The notes: generated by a model from the sequence alone, not told the origin. A DNA stretch of 64,000 bases from Phycisphaerae bacterium (GCA_051955985.1 JBQCGD010000071.1:27036-91035), one strand, 5' to 3'. Positions 9,311 through 38,082 are shown, numbered from the stretch's first letter. Program-made: numbers and translations.

Positions 9311-10750
9311 TCACTTATCTCGTGGGAGAAACGGCCGCGCGCTCAACGACTTCCCGACCAGCGTGCGTCCCGCCCAGATATCCTTCAACTGCCCCGTCGT
9401 GATCGCCTGAGTCATGATGTTTCCGAGTGCCGTCGCTTCGACGGGCCCGGCGAGCACGCGCAGTCCGGTCGCATCCGCGGCCAATTGATTCAGCAGATGG
9501 TTCTGCGATCCCCCGCCGACGATGTGCAGCACCTTGAACTGCTTGCCGGTGATCTCCTCGAGCATCTTCAGGACGCGTGCATATCCGGCGGCGAGCGATT
9601 CGAGGATGACCCGCACGAATTCCCCATGCGTTTTCGGAATCCGCTGGTTCGTCCGGGTGCACTGCGCGACGATTTTGCCGGGCATGTTTCCGGGCGTGGA
9701 AAACGCGGGGTCCTCCACATCCAGCAGCGCGATGTTTGCATCCGCCGCCTCGGCCATCTGCGTCAGGGTGGCGTAATCGTATTCCGTCCCTTCGCGCTGC
9801 CACTCGCGCCGGCACTCCTGGAGCAGCCAGAGGCCGGCGAGGTTTTTCAGCAGACGGATTTTTCCGCCGACGCCCCCTTCGTTCGTCACGTTGTATTGCG
9901 CCGCTTTCTCGGTAAGCACGGGCTGGTCCGTCTCGGCCCCGAGGAGCGACCACGTGCCGCTGGAAAGGTAGAGCCAGTCACCCTGCGCGGGATTGGCCGG
10001 CACCGCGGCGACGGCGGAGGCGGTGTCGTGACCGCCGACGGCGATGACCGGGACGTTCGACAGCTTTTCATTCACTTGCGGGAGCACGGCGCCGCGGACG
10101 GAATTCTTTTCGCCCGGGATGGAGATCGGCGGGAACAGGGCGGGATCGATGCCGATGGTCTTGAGGACTTCCGGCGACCATTGCCGGGTCCTGGCATCGA
10201 GCATCTGCGACGTGGAGGCGATCGTGTAATCGGTGCCTTTCCGACCGGTGAGGAAATAGGTGACCAAGTCCGGCAGGAAGAGGATGCTCTTGGCCGCGGC
10301 CAACTGCGGCGAATTTCCGAGGGAGAGCGCGGCCATCTGGAAGAGCGTGTTGAGGGACATCGTCTGGATGCCGGTGATGGAGTAGATCTTCTCTTTGGGC
10401 ATCCGCGTGAAGACGGCCTCGACCATGGGTTCGGTCCGCGGGTCGCGATAGCAGACCGGGTTTCCGAGCAACTCTCCGTTGGCGTCGAGCAACCCGAAAT
10501 CCACGCCCCAGGTGTCGACGCCGATGCCGGAAATTTCGTGCCCGCTCGCCCCCTTTGCGATGCCGGTCTTGATCTCGTGCCAGAGGCGCAGGATGTCCCA
10601 ATGGAGGCGTTTTCCGACCTGCACGGAGATGTTGGGGAAGCGATGCAGCTCGGTGAGTTTAATTCCGGCGTCGGAGACGGTCCCGAGCATCACACGACCC
10701 GATTCTGCGCCCAGGTCTATCGCCAGGTAATGTTTCTCACCACTCGCCAT
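9311..10750 (-). CDS. rhaB: rhamnulokinase (FGGY carbohydrate kinase)
   Basis: LAIDLGAESGRVMLG, GIDTWGVDFGLLD, VGGHDTASAV, HIVGGGSQNHLLNQ motifs closely parallel E. coli RhaB. Confidence 0.8.
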   Translation of the reverse strand: MASGEKHYLAIDLGAESGRVMLGTVSDAGIKLTELHRFPNISVQVGKRLHWDILRLWHEIKTGIAKGASGHEISGIGVDTWGVDFGLLDANGELLGNPVCYRDPRTEPMVEAVFTRMPKEKIYSITGIQTMSLNTLFQMAALSLGNSPQLAAAKSILFLPDLVTYFLTGRKGTDYTIASTSQMLDARTRQWSPEVLKTIGIDPALFPPISIPGEKNSVRGAVLPQVNEKLSNVPVIAVGGHDTASAVAAVPANPAQGDWLYLSSGTWSLLGAETDQPVLTEKAAQYNVTNEGGVGGKIRLLKNLAGLWLLQECRREWQREGTEYDYATLTQMAEAADANIALLDVEDPAFSTPGNMPGKIVAQCTRTNQRIPKTHGEFVRVILESLAAGYARVLKMLEEITGKQFKVLHIVGGGSQNHLLNQLAADATGLRVLAGPVEATALGNIMTQAITTGQLKDIWAGRTLVGKSLSARPFLPRDK

Positions 10751-25403: not shown

Positions 25404-26666
25404 GTGGGCGAGTGGCGTGGCGGGGACCGCGCGCCTGCGAACGAGAAATGTCCGCGATGTGACGGCTGGAGTGCCGATGTCCGGAGCAGGAGCAAGCTGT
25501 CGGTGAGTGAACCGGGATCATCCGTAGCGGGCGGTGGCGGGGGGGGAGCGGGGGAGACGGGAGGTGGGAGCGGCGCGGAAGTGGTGCGACCGCCGTTACA
25601 GCTCGTGCGCCTGCCGGTGGACAAGCCGCAGCCGGCGGTTTCGTTTTTACATGAACGGTCGCAGGGGGTGATGGATCTGATTGCGCATTTCTGGGAGCGG
25701 CTGGCGCAGACGCCGCCGTTGCAGCGGGGGGACTTGCACCTGGTGGTGGCGACGCCGACGGGGTCGGACGTGGTGAATATCAACACGCCGCAATTGGATG
25801 CGGGGAAGTTTTCGGGGGCGATGCTGTATGTGCCAAAGGCGCATCGGGCGGATGTGCTGGCATTGGACCCCCCTACTGCGGCGGCGTTTGCGGCGTATAT
25901 CAGCCATAAGGGGATGGAGGCAAGGTCCGATAATGTGGTTTCGGGTGCGGGGATGAATTCCGTAACTCCTGATTTAGTAAGCACTTCTGATTCTTCGGGT
26001 GGAACGTTACCGTTGACGGATTTGTCGAGCGTGGTGCGGGGGGCGGTGGCGTCGATGGAGTTGCCGGGGGATCCGGGGGTGGGGGGGAAAGGGGCGGGCG
26101 CGGCGGGGAATGGGAAGGTGCCGATTGATTTTTTGACGGGGCATGCGGAGGGGATTGGGTGGATGGTGCCGATGTTGTTGCCGGTGGTGCACAAGAAAGC
26201 GCCGGCGCGGGAGATGGTGAACGTGGTGATGCAATTGCCGGAAGGTGTTGTGTCAGAAGGGGATGGCAACGTTCGGGCGGCGAAGGAAGCGGACGTGCCG
26301 GTGCTGAACAAATGGCGGCGGATGTACAAGGAGGAGCGGGGGATTCTGTTTGATGCGGACCTGGATGCGTGGGTGCAGACGGGGCGGGTGTTTGTGTATG
26401 AACATGAAAAGCAGGTGGTGGCGGTGGCGAAGTTCGATTTGGAGCTGCCGCGGTTAATCGAGATAGGGGGGGTATTTACGTTTCCGGAGTTTCGGAAGAA
26501 GGGGTTCGGGGGGCGTATTGTGGCGGACCTGGCGGGGCGGATACGGGCGGCGGGGAAGACGCCGACGTTGCAGGTGGATGACCAGAATGGGCCGGCGTTA
26601 AAGCTGTATGAGGGGATGGGATGGCGGCCCATGGGGCGGTTGGCGCGGGTTTGGTTAACGGGGTAG
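25404..26666 (+). CDS. GNAT family N-acetyltransferase with about 300-aa unrecognised N-terminal region
   Basis: C-terminal GGVFTFPEFRKKGFGGRIVADLAGR (GNAT motif A); start uncertain (GTG 25404 or ATG 25671). Confidence 0.5.
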   Translation: MGEWRGGDRAPANEKCPRCDGWSADVRSRSKLSVSEPGSSVAGGGGGGAGETGGGSGAEVVRPPLQLVRLPVDKPQPAVSFLHERSQGVMDLIAHFWERLAQTPPLQRGDLHLVVATPTGSDVVNINTPQLDAGKFSGAMLYVPKAHRADVLALDPPTAAAFAAYISHKGMEARSDNVVSGAGMNSVTPDLVSTSDSSGGTLPLTDLSSVVRGAVASMELPGDPGVGGKGAGAAGNGKVPIDFLTGHAEGIGWMVPMLLPVVHKKAPAREMVNVVMQLPEGVVSEGDGNVRAAKEADVPVLNKWRRMYKEERGILFDADLDAWVQTGRVFVYEHEKQVVAVAKFDLELPRLIEIGGVFTFPEFRKKGFGGRIVADLAGRIRAAGKTPTLQVDDQNGPALKLYEGMGWRPMGRLARVWLTG

Positions 26667-26783
26667 CGAGGGGGGACTGGGGGTTGACTGGGGGTCGGTG
26701 GTGGGTTGGGTCGGGGTCTCTTATGGGGTAACTTGGGGTTTGTGGGCGGTCGACAAGGGGGGGTGATTGGGGCGGTAGGAGAC

Positions 26784-26797
26784 GTTCCACGTAGAAC
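26784..26797. promoter_or_regulatory. parS-like palindrome GTTCCACGTAGAAC (copy 1)
   Basis: 12/14 core match to the parS core GTTCCACGTGAAAC; 96 bp upstream of parB start. Confidence 0.4.
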
Positions 26798-26853
26798 TTT
26801 TGACTGCTTTGGTTGGGTTGGCGTTGACGTGCCGGGGGTGGTGGAGGTACAAG

Positions 26854-26867
26854 GTTCCACGTAGAAC
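26854..26867. promoter_or_regulatory. parS-like palindrome GTTCCACGTAGAAC (copy 2)
   Basis: Identical 14-mer 70 bp downstream of copy 1; 26 bp upstream of parB RBS. Confidence 0.4.
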
Positions 26868-26892
26868 ATTGCCTTGAGAAAGGAGTCTCGTG

Positions 26893-27843
26893 ATGACGTT
26901 GAAGGATCGACCACGGCTTGGGCGGGGGTTGAAGTCGCTTATCTCTACACCTGTCACCGTATCGCCTGCGGGCACGAATGGGTCGCCTACCCCCCCTGCC
27001 GAGAGCGTGCTGGAGACGGGGGAACGGTTGGCGTTGATCCCGGTGGAGGCGATTGATCCGAATCCGCACCAGCCGCGCGCGGCGATGGAGCCGACGGCGT
27101 TGCAGGAGCTGGCGAACTCCATCAAGCAGTCGGGCGTGTTGCAGCCGGTGATTGTGCGGCCGGGGGCACCGGTGAATGGGACGCCGCGGTATGAGCTGGT
27201 GGCGGGGCATCGGCGGACGGAGGCGGCGAAGCTGGCGGGGCTGGCGGTGGTGCCGGCGATTGTGCGGCAGGATACGACGGATGAACGACAGGCGGAGTGG
27301 GCGCTGATCGAGAACATCCAGCGGGAGGATCTCAATGCGATCGAGCGGGCGAAGGCGTACCGGGCGTACGTTGACAAGTTCTCGCTGACACATGGGCAGG
27401 CGGCGGAGCGGCTGGGGGAGGACCGAACAACGATCACGAACTTCCTGCGGCTGCTGGAGTTGAACCCGGGGGTGCAGGACCTGGTGGCGCGGGGGATCTT
27501 GTCGGCGGGGCATGCGAAGGTACTGGCGGGGGTAACGGACAAGGCGAAGCAGGATTCGTTTGCCAACAAGGCAGTGACGGAGGGGTTGAGCGTTCGGAAG
27601 TTGGAGGAGCTGGTGAGCGCCCCCCCCCTGCCCACCGAGACACCTGCAGAGACGACGGTGGCGGCGCATACGCGGACGCTGGCGGCGAAGAGTCCGCATG
27701 TGGTGGAGCTGGAGCAGGATCTTTCGCGGAAGCTGGGGACGAAGCTGCGGATTTTCCCGAGCAAGAAGAAGAACACGGGGAAGATCATGATCCAGTATTT
27801 TTCGCTCGATGAGTTTGACCGGATCGTCGAGAAGTTTAATTGA
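26893..27843 (+). CDS. parB: ParB/Spo0J partition protein
   Basis: LQELANSIKQSGVLQPVIVRP, ELVAGHRRTEAAKLAG (GHRR box), HTH; AAGGAG RBS. Confidence 0.8.
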   Translation: MTLKDRPRLGRGLKSLISTPVTVSPAGTNGSPTPPAESVLETGERLALIPVEAIDPNPHQPRAAMEPTALQELANSIKQSGVLQPVIVRPGAPVNGTPRYELVAGHRRTEAAKLAGLAVVPAIVRQDTTDERQAEWALIENIQREDLNAIERAKAYRAYVDKFSLTHGQAAERLGEDRTTITNFLRLLELNPGVQDLVARGILSAGHAKVLAGVTDKAKQDSFANKAVTEGLSVRKLEELVSAPPLPTETPAETTVAAHTRTLAAKSPHVVELEQDLSRKLGTKLRIFPSKKKNTGKIMIQYFSLDEFDRIVEKFN

Positions 27844-27964: not shown

Positions 27965-29092
27965 ATGGCGAAGCGGATCGCCAAACCGGTGAGCAAGCGC
28001 GCGGCGAGGCCGGCGGGCGTGGCGCGTGGCGGGGTGGTGGAGCGCGCCGGGAAGGGGGAGCATTGGGGTGGGGGGGAGGCGAAGAAGCTGGAGGCGTTGC
28101 CGACGGATGCGCCGGGGCGTGCGTCGGTGGCGGGGCCGAAGTCGGGGGTGGGGGTGGTGGGGTCGTTGAACATGGATTTGGTGGTGCGCACGGAGACGAT
28201 GCCGCGGCCGGGGGAGACGGTGCTGGGGCAGGATTTGTTGCAGACTCGGGGGGGGACGGGGGCGAACCAGGCGGCGGCGGCGGGGCGGCTGTGGAACCGG
28301 AAGACGTCGGGGGCGAAGCTGATCGGGCGGATCGGGGAGGATGTTTTCGGGGAGAACATGCTGGTGGCGTTGAACAAGTGCAAGGTGGATGTGACGTCGG
28401 TGTTGAAGACGCGCGGGTCGCCTTCGGGGACGGCGATGATCCTGGTGGATCGGCATGGGGAGAATGCGATCGTGGTGGCGAGCGGGGCGAATCGGCAGTT
28501 GTCGGCGACGGATTTATTGGCGGAGCGGAAGACGATCGAGACGTCGGTGGTGCTGACGGCGCAGCTGGAGGTGCCGCACGATACGGTGGCGTGTGCATTT
28601 GCGTTGGCGCGGCGGTCGAATGTGTTGACGATTCTGGATCCAGCGCCGGCGCCTGCGGAGGGGTTGCCGGAGTCGTTGTATCATGTAGATATCTTGACAC
28701 CTAACCAGATGGAGGCGCAGATCCTGACGGGGATGCCGGTGCGGAATTTGGAGGAGGCGCGGCGTGCGGCGGAGCGGTTCTTGATTCGGGGGACGCGGAT
28801 CGTTGTGATGAAGATGGGGTCGCAGGGGGCGGCGATTGTGCAGAAGGATGAGCGCGGGGTGGAGACGGTGGTGCAGCATGTGACGGGGTATCGGATTCAG
28901 CCGGTGGACACGACGGCGGCGGGGGATGCGTTCACGGGGGCGCTGGCGGTGGGGCTGGCGGAGGGGATGCCGCTGGCGGCGGCGGTGAAGTTTGCGAATG
29001 CGGCGGGGGCGCTGGCGTGTTTGAAGCAGGGGGCGATGGGGGCGATACCGGGGCGCGCGGAGGTGGAGGGGTTTATGGCGGAGAGGGCGTGA
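27965..29092 (+). CDS. rbsK: ribokinase (PfkB family) with about 60-aa basic N-terminal extension
   Basis: VVGSLNMDLVV, GGTGANQAAAAGRL, C-terminal DTTAAGDAFTGALAVG; GAGGGA RBS before ATG 27965. Confidence 0.7.
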   Translation: MAKRIAKPVSKRAARPAGVARGGVVERAGKGEHWGGGEAKKLEALPTDAPGRASVAGPKSGVGVVGSLNMDLVVRTETMPRPGETVLGQDLLQTRGGTGANQAAAAGRLWNRKTSGAKLIGRIGEDVFGENMLVALNKCKVDVTSVLKTRGSPSGTAMILVDRHGENAIVVASGANRQLSATDLLAERKTIETSVVLTAQLEVPHDTVACAFALARRSNVLTILDPAPAPAEGLPESLYHVDILTPNQMEAQILTGMPVRNLEEARRAAERFLIRGTRIVVMKMGSQGAAIVQKDERGVETVVQHVTGYRIQPVDTTAAGDAFTGALAVGLAEGMPLAAAVKFANAAGALACLKQGAMGAIPGRAEVEGFMAERA

Positions 29093-36360: not shown

Positions 36361-37497
36361 ATGAAAGTTCTGATCAATCGCGCCGCGCTGGTGGAAGCCC
36401 TCGGCCTTGCTTCTTCTGTGGTTCTTTCGCGGACGCCGAAGCCGGTGTTGACGTGTGTGAAGCTGGTGGCGGGGACGGGGGCGGGCGGGACGGGGGCGAA
36501 GACGCTGACGGTGGTGGCGACGGACATGGAGCTGGCGCTGCAATACACGCTGACGCAGGTGGATATTGCGACGCCGGGGGTTGCGTTGATTCCGGCGGGG
36601 AAGCTTTCGGAGATTGTGAACAATTCGCCGGACGATACGCTGACGCTGGACACGAACCAGGACACGACAGCGATCAAGGGGTCGGATGCGCAGTACAAGG
36701 TGTTCGGGTACAACCCGGAGGAATTTCCGCCGGTGTCGTCGTTTGACGGGTCGCCGGACTTTTCGCTGACGGCGGGGAGCCTGCGGCAGCTGCTGGACCG
36801 GACGCGGTTTGCGGCGGCGCGCGAGATGACGCGGTATGCGATCAACGGCGTGCTGTTTGAGAAGAAGGGGAAGAAGCTGTCGCTGGTGGCGACGGACGGG
36901 CACCGGCTGGCACAGACGAAGGATGACACGATTTCGGAAGGGGGGAAGGATGTGTCGGCGGTGGTGCCGATCAAGGCAATCAACCTGATTGAGCGGCTGC
37001 TGACGGATCCGGAGCAGACGGTGTCGCTGCAGTTCAAGGAAAACAAGCTGTTTGTGCAGATCAGCTCGGAGACGGGGGGCGTGAGTGCGACGATGTCGAC
37101 ATCGCTGGTGGAGGGGACGTTCCCGCCGTACGGGGATGTGATTCCGAAGGATTCGGACAAGAAGGTGACGTTGAACCGGGAGCGGTTTTTCTCGGCGGTG
37201 CGGCGTGCGGCGTTGCTCACGAACGAGGAATCGAAGGGGGTGCGGCTGGCGTTTTCGAGCGGGACGTTGTCGATTTCTTCGCGGGCGCCGGAGATGGGCG
37301 AAGCGAAGATTGATCTGCCGATCGAATATGCAGGGGATGCGATTGAGATCGGGTTCAATCCGACGTATCTGCTGGACGCGTTGAAGGTGGCGGATCAGGA
37401 GACGGTGACGTTTGAGATGAAGACGCCGAACAAGCCGGGGCTGCTCAAAAGCGGTCCGGGGTTCTTGTATGTGGTGATGCCGGTGAATCTCAGCTGA
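36361..37497 (+). CDS. dnaN: DNA polymerase III beta sliding clamp
   Basis: MKVLINRAALVEALGL...three-domain clamp pattern, about 378 aa. Confidence 0.85.
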   Translation: MKVLINRAALVEALGLASSVVLSRTPKPVLTCVKLVAGTGAGGTGAKTLTVVATDMELALQYTLTQVDIATPGVALIPAGKLSEIVNNSPDDTLTLDTNQDTTAIKGSDAQYKVFGYNPEEFPPVSSFDGSPDFSLTAGSLRQLLDRTRFAAAREMTRYAINGVLFEKKGKKLSLVATDGHRLAQTKDDTISEGGKDVSAVVPIKAINLIERLLTDPEQTVSLQFKENKLFVQISSETGGVSATMSTSLVEGTFPPYGDVIPKDSDKKVTLNRERFFSAVRRAALLTNEESKGVRLAFSSGTLSISSRAPEMGEAKIDLPIEYAGDAIEIGFNPTYLLDALKVADQETVTFEMKTPNKPGLLKSGPGFLYVVMPVNLS

Positions 37498-37611: not shown

Positions 37612-38082
37612 ATGATCGTGGGTTTTATGCCTCCCCGCAAAAAGAATAACGGCCAGAAGCCGGCCGCGCGCTCGAACGCGCCTTCGCCTGAGAACATCTC
37701 AAACCTGGAGATGCGGGGGGATCGGCTGAAGGTGTTTTCGCTGCAGACCCTGCTGACGAACAAGAAGAGCAAGGAGACGCGGGAGACTGCGAAGCTGGGG
37801 GAGGTGTTGTTGCCGTGGTTTGAGAAGATGGTGGAGAAGCCGGCAGAGAAGATGGAGGGGGTGCTGGAGCTGTGGATGGAGCTGGCGCCGCCAAATCTGA
37901 AGGAGCGTGCGCGGCTGGTGAGTTTTCAGCGGGGGACGCTGACGATCGCGGTGGAGTCGGCGACGGTGCGGGCGGAGCTGGATGGGCAGTTGCGGCAGGG
38001 GCTTTTGCGGAAGCTGCAGATGGGGTCGAAGGGGGCGATTTTTCGTATCAAGACATCGGTGCAGCCCTTACGGGAGATGTGA
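37612..38082 (+). CDS. dciA: DUF721 family protein, candidate DciA-type helicase loader
   Basis: C-terminal LELWMELAPPNLKERARLVSFQRGTLTIAVESATVRAELDGQLRQGLLRKL matches DUF721 hydrophobic pattern; immediately downstream of dnaN. Confidence 0.5.
   Translation: MIVGFMPPRKKNNGQKPAARSNAPSPENISNLEMRGDRLKVFSLQTLLTNKKSKETRETAKLGEVLLPWFEKMVEKPAEKMEGVLELWMELAPPNLKERARLVSFQRGTLTIAVESATVRAELDGQLRQGLLRKLQMGSKGAIFRIKTSVQPLREM

Follow-up and report, generated by a model that had tools for sequence, protein, structure and literature searches.

Twin probable parS sites upstream of a parB gene without adjacent parA in an uncultured Phycisphaerae lineage

Introduction

What do two short, identical near-palindromes do in front of a parB gene that has no parA beside it? 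This question is raised by a DNA stretch of 64,000 nucleotides from a Phycisphaerae bacterium (GCA_051955985.1 JBQCGD010000071.1:27036-91035), referred to below in its entirety as the window, in which the 14-mer GTTCCACGTAGAAC occurs twice just upstream of a gene encoding a ParB/Spo0J-type protein. An original prediction, made from the sequence alone, had described the two copies as a possible variant 'dialect' of parS, the DNA site on which ParB is loaded. The analysis reported here indicates that they are very probably genuine parS sites, that is, nucleation sites for the organism's own ParB, and that they belong to a clade palindrome, TGTTCCACGTGGAACA, in which either C or T is tolerated at one position of the half-site (TGTTCYACGTRGAACA). 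The locus is best understood as a chromosome-partition centromere of the ordinary sort, with minor features peculiar to its lineage, and not as a new kind of system.

Two copies of a near-palindrome in front of parB

An exact search recovered GTTCCACGTAGAAC exactly twice in the window, where the original prediction had placed it. Both copies are read on the + strand, with a start-to-start spacing of 70 bp, and they lie at positions -109 (distal) and -39 (proximal) relative to the parB ATG (Table 1). When up to 2 mismatches to GTTCCACGTAGAAC are allowed, 4 strand-matches are observed, against a mean of 0.28 in dinucleotide-preserving shuffles (n=100), none of which reaches 4 (0/100). When the window was searched with the palindrome GTTCCACGTGGAAC at up to 2 mismatches, the twin sites were its only matches. 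Outside the 14-16 bp of the sites, the sequence is not repeated between the two copies. The 124 nt upstream of parB are identical in L096, an independent assembly of this organism at read level, which reproduces both copies, so the two variants with A are not an assembly error.

The sites are inverted repeats of 14-16 bp of the TGTTNCACGTGNAACA class. Their 14-bp cores match GTTCCACGTGGAAC at 13/14 positions and the canonical GTTCCACGTGAAAC at 12/14, and the 14-mer is self-complementary at 12/14 positions; the canonical match and the pseudo-dyad had both been noted in the original prediction, and recomputation bore them out. Each site is a single G-to-A change away from GTTCCACGTGGAAC, which breaks the dyad at one position and leaves one T-type half-site per site. 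Extended to 16 bp, the distal site matches TGTTCCACGTGGAACA at 13/16 positions and the proximal site at 14/16. The proximal 16-mer lies 3 mismatches from TGTTNCACGTGAAACA, the Bacillus/Caulobacter-type parS, and a search of the window with up to 3 mismatches to this 16-mer returned only the proximal site and one unrelated match.

Comparison with published sites clarifies which family of parS sequences is concerned. TGTTCCACGTGGAACA is the experimentally bound parS of Pseudomonas aeruginosa and Pseudomonas putida, and Myxococcus xanthus uses TGTTCCACGTGGAACG (PMC4368675, PMC7022226). The 'central GA-to-AG swap' by which the sites had been characterized turns out to be an artefact of the reference chosen, the Bacillus-type consensus with its GAAAC half; the sites are one transition from TGTTCCACGTGGAACA. 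The T-type half-site itself has been seen before: in P. aeruginosa, parS5 combines a GTTCTAC half with a second mismatch, and it is the weakest of the natural sites (PMC4368675).

Two further features of the window were considered and set aside. GTTCYAC half-sites number 17, against 9.0 +/- 3.0 expected, and 4 of these 17 lie within the two full sites; an enrichment comparable to the nucleoid-associated role of half-sites in P. aeruginosa was dropped, this excess being unconvincing. The stretch that precedes the sites (26668-26760) is G-rich, as had been remarked (55% G, 97th percentile), but it is not a special feature. G-quadruplex (G4)-type motif clusters are found 43 times on the + strand of the window and 0 times on the - strand, so that the G-tract reflects a background strand skew. 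Together with the lack of conservation of this stretch in relatives, the 43:0 bias led us to reject it as a functional G-quadruplex or regulatory element.

Conservation in related Phycisphaerae

The evidence that carries the assignment comes from 15 related loci, gathered from Phycisphaerae genomes and metagenomes, whose ParB proteins are 54-89% identical to that of the window. The metagenome sample was picked with the pattern GHAK, and one search pattern contained AGHRR, so the sample is biased in these respects. Two sites are present upstream of parB in 15/15 of these loci, while the remaining spacer has diverged; they are thus kept independently of their flanks in genomes with a cognate ParB, which argues that they are parS sites under selection. 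In an alignment of nine spacers (alignment A1; mean column identity 55%), the invariant columns are those of the two sites (13/14 and 11/14 positions), the TTG of a -35-like hexamer, and the ribosome-binding and start region. These loci give, as consensus for the lineage, a perfect palindrome, TGTTCCACGTGGAACA, the known Pseudomonas/Myxococcus-type parS. The same palindrome lies beside parB in more distant loci (ParB 43-50% identical). No other site within 2 mismatches was found in about 306 kb of clade DNA (+/-10 kb around the relatives' loci), and none of the first nine related loci contains the exact canonical core GTTNCACGTGAAAC.

The two sites have different histories. The distal one reads (T)GTTCCACGTGGAAC(A), a perfect palindrome, in 14/15 relatives, the exception being L014, which has TGTTCTACGTAGAACA. 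As it is also perfect in the two closest relatives (ParB 89% and 87% identical), the distal G-to-A of the window is, on this comparison, a recent change seen only there. The identity of the two copies had been offered as a sign of selection: selection itself is well supported by the 15 relatives, but copy identity is no evidence for it, given how recent the distal change appears. At the proximal site, the same G-to-A variant is present at the homologous position in L001/L016, L003, L005, L007, L010, L011, and L013; it is accompanied by one extra change in L004 and mirrored in L006, and L002, L008, L012, and L017 have the perfect palindrome. Placed on the ParB tree, the proximal variant extends from the basal L013 (57% identity) up to crown members, and the G-to-A change at this promoter-proximal site is, as far as the tree indicates, old and widespread in the clade.

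The most informative relative is L014 (ParB 68% identical), in which both sites (9806-9821 and 9968-9983) are perfect copies of the alternative palindrome TGTTCTACGTAGAACA, so that all four half-sites read GTTCTAC. Its ParB has the same residues at the specificity positions (R173/F179/D184/G201) as clade members that keep GTTCCAC sites, and the sole difference among ten scored DNA-contact positions, D172E, is also found in L013. At one position of the half-site, then, the clade ParB evidently tolerates both C and T.

Outside this clade, parB also stands without an adjacent parA in a second group of loci (L018-L036 and L046; ParB 42-50% identical to that of the window). There, box II has the canonical GERR form, no GNAT gene neighbours parB, and a perfect TGTTCCACGTGGAACA lies upstream, often with another just past the stop codon (at about +770 to +975, counted from the start). 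Single-base core variants of their own, repeated at several sites, are seen in other ParB lineages (L054, L055, L062, L067, and L076, contigs from human-gut and other metagenomes): three TGTTCCATGTGGAACA sites (CATG core) and one TGTTCCACATGGAACA site are found in the 3.5 kb upstream of parA-parB. In L028, TGTTCCATGTGGAACA occurs twice. One-position parS variants thus appear to be common. A separate observation concerns the closest relative, L010, where short GGTAC/GTACC repeats (TTTTGGTACGGTTCTGTACCATTTTAGTACCGTTTTGGTACCGTTT; 9830-9880) lie upstream of the distal parS; none occur in the window.

A promoter-like element locked to the proximal site

A putative parB promoter lies between the two sites (Table 1). 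It is proposed because of its conservation in relatives. The distance from TTGAC[GCA] to the proximal site is 22-24 nt in 12/16 clade loci (window included), and a TAcAAg, GACAAT, or CATAAT block stands just 5' of the proximal site in the relatives, with a gap of 0-1 nt. The distance between the two sites varies among clade loci, from 62 to 429 bp. With this geometry, transcription would be expected to start inside the proximal parS, and the proximal site is likely an operator. An RNA element in the spacer was also considered and dropped, Rfam having returned no RNA family across the window.

Since the proximal site abuts a conserved promoter-like element at fixed spacing, roles in both ParB loading and autorepression are plausible, as the original prediction had suggested. 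From the sequences compared, we infer that ParB binds the sites, is loaded there as a clamp and represses its own gene, that the locus acts as centromere, and that ParA is its partner; these roles would fit together as follows. ParB dimers would bind both sites through their helix-turn-helix domain and, with cytidine triphosphate (CTP), would close into clamps that slide onto flanking DNA. The resulting partition complex, about 9.5 kb from dnaN-dciA, could serve as cargo for an unlinked Soj-type ParA and/or as a loading point for SMC. ParB on the proximal site, just past the -10-like hexamer, would hinder RNA polymerase and thereby repress parB, and the distal site, at its variable distance, would provide a second loading point and raise the local concentration of ParB.

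Translation signals near the gene are also conserved. The region around the ribosome-binding site (26875-26888, GAGAAAGGAGTCTC) is kept nearly base for base in the clade (GAGAAnGGAGTCTC). It includes a short GAGA...TCTC inverted repeat around the GGAG, and the region may simply be a strong conserved ribosome-binding site.

Table 1. Features of the parB locus and its surroundings in the window
Feature	Position	Strand	Basis and remarks
Distal parS site, GTTCCACGTAGAAC	26784..26797	none	Exact match; 16-mer cGTTCCACGTAGAACt = 26783-26798
Proximal parS site, GTTCCACGTAGAAC	26854..26867	none	Exact match; 16-mer gGTTCCACGTAGAACa = 26853-26868
-35-like hexamer TTGACG, putative parB promoter	26824..26829	+	TTG invariant in alignment A1
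-10-like hexamer TACAAG, 18 nt after the -35, abutting the proximal parS	26848..26853	+	Conserved block; promoter role inferred
Shine-Dalgarno GGAG in conserved block GAGAAaGGAGTCTC, 7 nt before ATG	26882..26885	+	Sequence reading; alignment A1
parB, 316 aa, chromosomal-type ParB/Spo0J	26893..27843	+	Pfam, PDB matches, database identity
GNAT/FR47 acetyltransferase, upstream of parB	25404..26666	+	Pfam; start codon uncertain
PfkB-family carbohydrate kinase, downstream of parB	27965..29092	+	Pfam PfkB, E 1e-62; syntenic in 10 clade loci
dnaN (DNA polymerase III beta clamp), 9.5 kb downstream of parB	36361..37497	+	tblastn, 60% identity to L012 gene
dciA-like gene (replicative helicase loader family), next to dnaN	37612..38082	+	tblastn to L012 DciA, E 3e-20

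Replication genes and a predicted unlinked ParA

The gene content around parB fits an origin-proximal centromere, though only indirectly. The L012 homologue of the window dnaN has three DNA_pol3_beta Pfam domains, and the Pfam domain DciA is found in the corresponding genes of L010 and L012. The pair dnaN-dciA is likewise located downstream of parB in the two closest relatives, L010/L011. In L012, dnaA-dnaN-dciA begin 2.5 kb after parB (L012 13506-16815). Given this order, and as no dnaA stands beside dnaN in the window, dnaA has been separated from dnaN in the sublineage of the window. Strand asymmetry is extreme: the GC skew is 0.25-0.47 from about 10-12 to 58 kb, regardless of gene orientation, and about 0 at 4-10 and 58-64 kb, two flat segments for which rearrangement or acquired DNA are candidate causes; no clear skew minimum for mapping an origin exists within the window.

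No ParA-like open reading frame was detected in the window by tblastn, either with Soj-type ParA (E<=10) or with a clade ParA fragment (E<=1e-3), in agreement with the earlier report that no parA adjoins parB. None of the clade loci has an adjacent parA either, so the parAB operon arrangement, with parA directly upstream, is not the one found here. The sole ParA-like match among these loci is in L012 (1-477, - strand), 9.6 kb upstream of parB, with the Walker A motif KGGVGKTT. Homologues at about 70% identity (L098, 10001-10807, and L099, 10001-10801) are, like the L012 gene, solitary, one of them being a named ParA from a Phycisphaerae metagenome-assembled genome (MAG), and neither parB nor parS was found within 10 kb of these Soj-type homologues. 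Their neighbours vary between loci and include ftsK, DUF1844, and a GntR-type regulator. Because related Phycisphaerae have Soj-type ParA genes and the window ParB keeps its LGRGL motif (see below), a ParA partner is to be expected. The description of parB as an 'orphan' therefore holds locally but not beyond the locus: the gene would be unlinked from its partner and not ParA-less.

The immediate neighbours had been given as a GNAT gene and a ribokinase. Pfam supports the first; for the second, ribokinase is plausible, but the assignment stops at a PfkB-family sugar kinase. A GNAT/FR47 gene is directly upstream of parB in 15 clade loci (L001-L003, L005-L008, and L010-L017), its C-terminal half being 53-85% identical, and is absent from the more distant ParB loci. 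The acetyltransferase may be functionally linked to ParB. In several relatives, the distal parS lies at the GNAT stop codon or within a few bases of it; the TGA overlaps the site in L014, and the TAA abuts it in L015.

A parS-type ParB with a variant box II

The protein encoded by the window parB is 100% identical to a database entry (P0001, 'ParB/RepB/Spo0J family partition protein [Phycisphaerae bacterium]') that starts at the ATG at 26893, and not at a GTG three bases earlier (26890); an exact-protein look-up using the GTG start gave no match. Three Pfam domains are recognized, all above cut-off: ParB_N (PF02195, E 7e-29), HTH_ParB (PF17762, 5e-33), and ParB_C (PF23552, 2e-13). The best PDB matches (E 6e-44 to 4e-38) are Bacillus subtilis Spo0J and the ParB proteins of M. 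xanthus, Thermus thermophilus, Caulobacter crescentus, and Helicobacter pylori. The N-terminal ParA-interaction motif LG[R/K]GL is present (MTLKDRPRLGRGLKSLI), with PRLGRGL (P7-L13) nearly invariant in 22 homologues; motifs of the LGRGL type are used for ParA contact in other species (PMC12207404).

The specificity residues are of the parS type and not of the Noc type. R173 and G201 (Caulobacter numbering) separate parS-binders from Noc-type binders, with 179 and 184 as permissive positions (PMC7383237). The window ParB keeps R173, G201, N178, and G170, and has F at position 179 and E at position 184. Other contact positions are unusual (H162, E171, D172, and K204). However, E171, D172, and K204 also occur in more distant ParB proteins that have only perfect palindromes as sites. 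As GHAK was moreover used to select the sample, no conclusion on specificity is drawn from these residues. The idea that R204K causes relaxed specificity was dropped, as this selection makes K204 uninformative.

Box II of the window ParB reads GHRRTEAA (27205-27228, residues ~105-112), versus the canonical GERRxRAA. The glycine and the two central arginines of the GERRxR motif, which is needed for CTP binding and hydrolysis, are kept; the glutamate is replaced by histidine and the last arginine by glutamate. GHRRTEAA is found in 16/16 clade loci (window included; L001-L008 and L010-L017) and in 22/22 database homologues (P0001-P0120), down to 56% identity. In M. xanthus, hydrolysis of CTP is proposed to use E93 as catalytic base; this residue forms hydrogen bonds with Q52 and R97, and the E93A substitution leads to slower hydrolysis and wider spreading (bioRxiv 10.1101/2021.05.05.442810). 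Across 95 ParB loci, a sample biased by the pattern AGHRR, the equivalents of E93 and R97 covary: the combination is Glu/Arg in 47 loci, His/non-Arg in 44, His/Arg in 1, and Glu/non-Arg in 3. The equivalents of Q52, R54, E126, and N127 are conserved in 92/95 loci. Other His-type lineages were found, with an adjacent parA, so the box II variant is recurrent and not unique to the clade. No published description of a 'GHRR' ParB variant was found in the literature searched.

A bolder construction of the same observations would be a pared-down, rewired module, in which one parS pair serves as the whole centromere and as auto-operator, parA is unlinked, half-site recognition is relaxed to GTTCYAC, and the E93-R97 pair is swapped to His-Glu. 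We hold it only tentatively and consider it unlikely. If true, the His-Glu swap may alter the CTP-hydrolysis timer and hence the lifetime of the clamp and the distance of spreading.

Weighing the parS assignment against its alternatives

Several points speak against the assignment of the twin sites as parS at a centromere with an autoregulated parB. All the evidence is sequence from uncultured MAGs. In P. aeruginosa, the CACGTG core is important for affinity (PMC4368675), and the G-to-A change of the window falls within it; both window sites may thus be sub-optimal, that is, weaker than the perfect palindrome. A strict consensus scanner called no promoter or terminator between 26600 and 28000, and the -10-like hexamer is weak (4/6). 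As box II deviates from GERRxR, CTP-dependent clamping is an assumption. Finally, neither dnaA nor a sign change of the GC skew was found within the 64-kb window.

In a first alternative, the twin sites would be only a parB autoregulatory operator pair, with the real centromere, made of further, stronger parS sites and perhaps a second parAB operon, elsewhere in the genome. The proximal site is indeed locked to the promoter, both window sites are imperfect, parA is elsewhere, and the sequence covered amounts to the 64-kb window and, for the relatives, +/-10 kb. Nevertheless, this explanation is very unlikely: the twin sites are the sole ones in the clade DNA searched, no parS lies near the solitary parA genes of L098/L099, and the locus is near dnaN/dciA, as well as near dnaA in L012. 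Moreover, known systems load clamps at any ParB-bound parS, so that operator and centromere are compatible functions.

A true new dialect, in which the clade ParB prefers CACGTAG/GTTCTAC and the A-variant is optimal, would explain why this variant spans the proximal sites from the basal L013 to the crown, why L006 has its mirror image and L014 a fully symmetric form at both sites, and why the clade ParB has unusual contact residues (H162, E171, D172, and K204). We judge it very unlikely, as the distal site is a perfect CACGTGG palindrome in 14/15 relatives and the proximal one in L002, L008, L012, and L017, and as three of these residues also occur in distant ParB proteins with perfect palindromes only, K204 being uninformative in any case. 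What survives of the proposed dialect is its weaker form, with a GTTCTAC half that recurs at clade proximal sites and fills all four half-sites in L014; the swap form does not stand. Lastly, it is almost certainly wrong that the 14-mers are operators for another regulator, such as the product of a PadR-family gene located 1.5 kb upstream on the opposite strand (regulators other than ParB can bind CACGTG-core palindromes), or that they are a local duplication without function, since the sites accompany parB in every relative, including those with different neighbours (L004 and L012-L015), recur in distant ParB loci without GNAT and PadR, and equal a published parS (PMC4368675), and since the flanks beyond 14-16 bp are not repeated.

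The assignment of the twin sites as genuine parS, very probable on this balance, would provide a confident, conservation-backed parS for an uncultured Phycisphaerae lineage, in which no published description of ParABS was found in the literature searched. It also supplies a centromere marker near dnaN/dciA that can help to anchor origin regions in MAGs, and, in the proximal parS with its fixed distance from the putative parB promoter, a clear natural example of such an arrangement. Natural variants for studies of ParB specificity and of the CTP timer are found in the recurrent GTTCTAC half-site and in GHRRTEAA, shared by the whole clade, with its covariation from E/R to H/non-R. The current ParABS model is not overturned by these findings.

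Comparison with known partition systems

The closest match in sequence is with P. aeruginosa, P. putida, and M. xanthus, which have the same 16-bp palindrome TGTTCCACGTGGAACA (or ...AACG) as the clade consensus. In these bacteria, natural variants with 1 and 2 mismatches stand beside perfect sites and form an affinity hierarchy (PMC4368675, PMC7022226). They differ by their parA-parB operons and their 4-22 sites spread over the ori domain, whereas two sites are seen here, around the parB promoter, with parA unlinked. The GTTCTAC half, a weak outlier in P. aeruginosa parS5, is recurrent in the clade and exclusive in L014. The Bacillus/Caulobacter-type systems share with the window the protein family, the domain order, R173/G201, and a site next to or in parB, near replication genes. 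By contrast, their half-site is GTTTCAC instead of GTTCCAC/GTTCTAC, and their box II is GERRxRAA instead of GHRRTEAA.

With respect to gene organization, Streptococcus pneumoniae offers the nearest likeness, with an orphan parB and four oriC-proximal parS sites (PMC7022226). The resemblance lies in a parB without adjacent parA and in few parS sites close to replication genes. However, Soj-type ParA is found in related Phycisphaerae, and ParB keeps its LGRGL motif. ParB-family proteins of the KorB type act as autorepressors at operators in their own promoters. The palindromic site that overlaps the putative parB promoter is reminiscent of this arrangement, the repression suggested here being derived from geometry alone. 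However, the window ParB matches KorB at E 2e-11, against 6e-44 to 4e-38 for chromosomal Spo0J/ParB proteins, and it has a chromosomal context without a KorA-like partner. The departures of this locus from textbook ParABS are thus an unlinked parA, two sites seen, a promoter-locked site, a tolerated GTTCTAC half, and a non-canonical box II, and each of them has partial precedent, as illustrated by the orphan parB of S. pneumoniae, the parS mismatch variants of P. aeruginosa, and the autorepressors of the KorB type.

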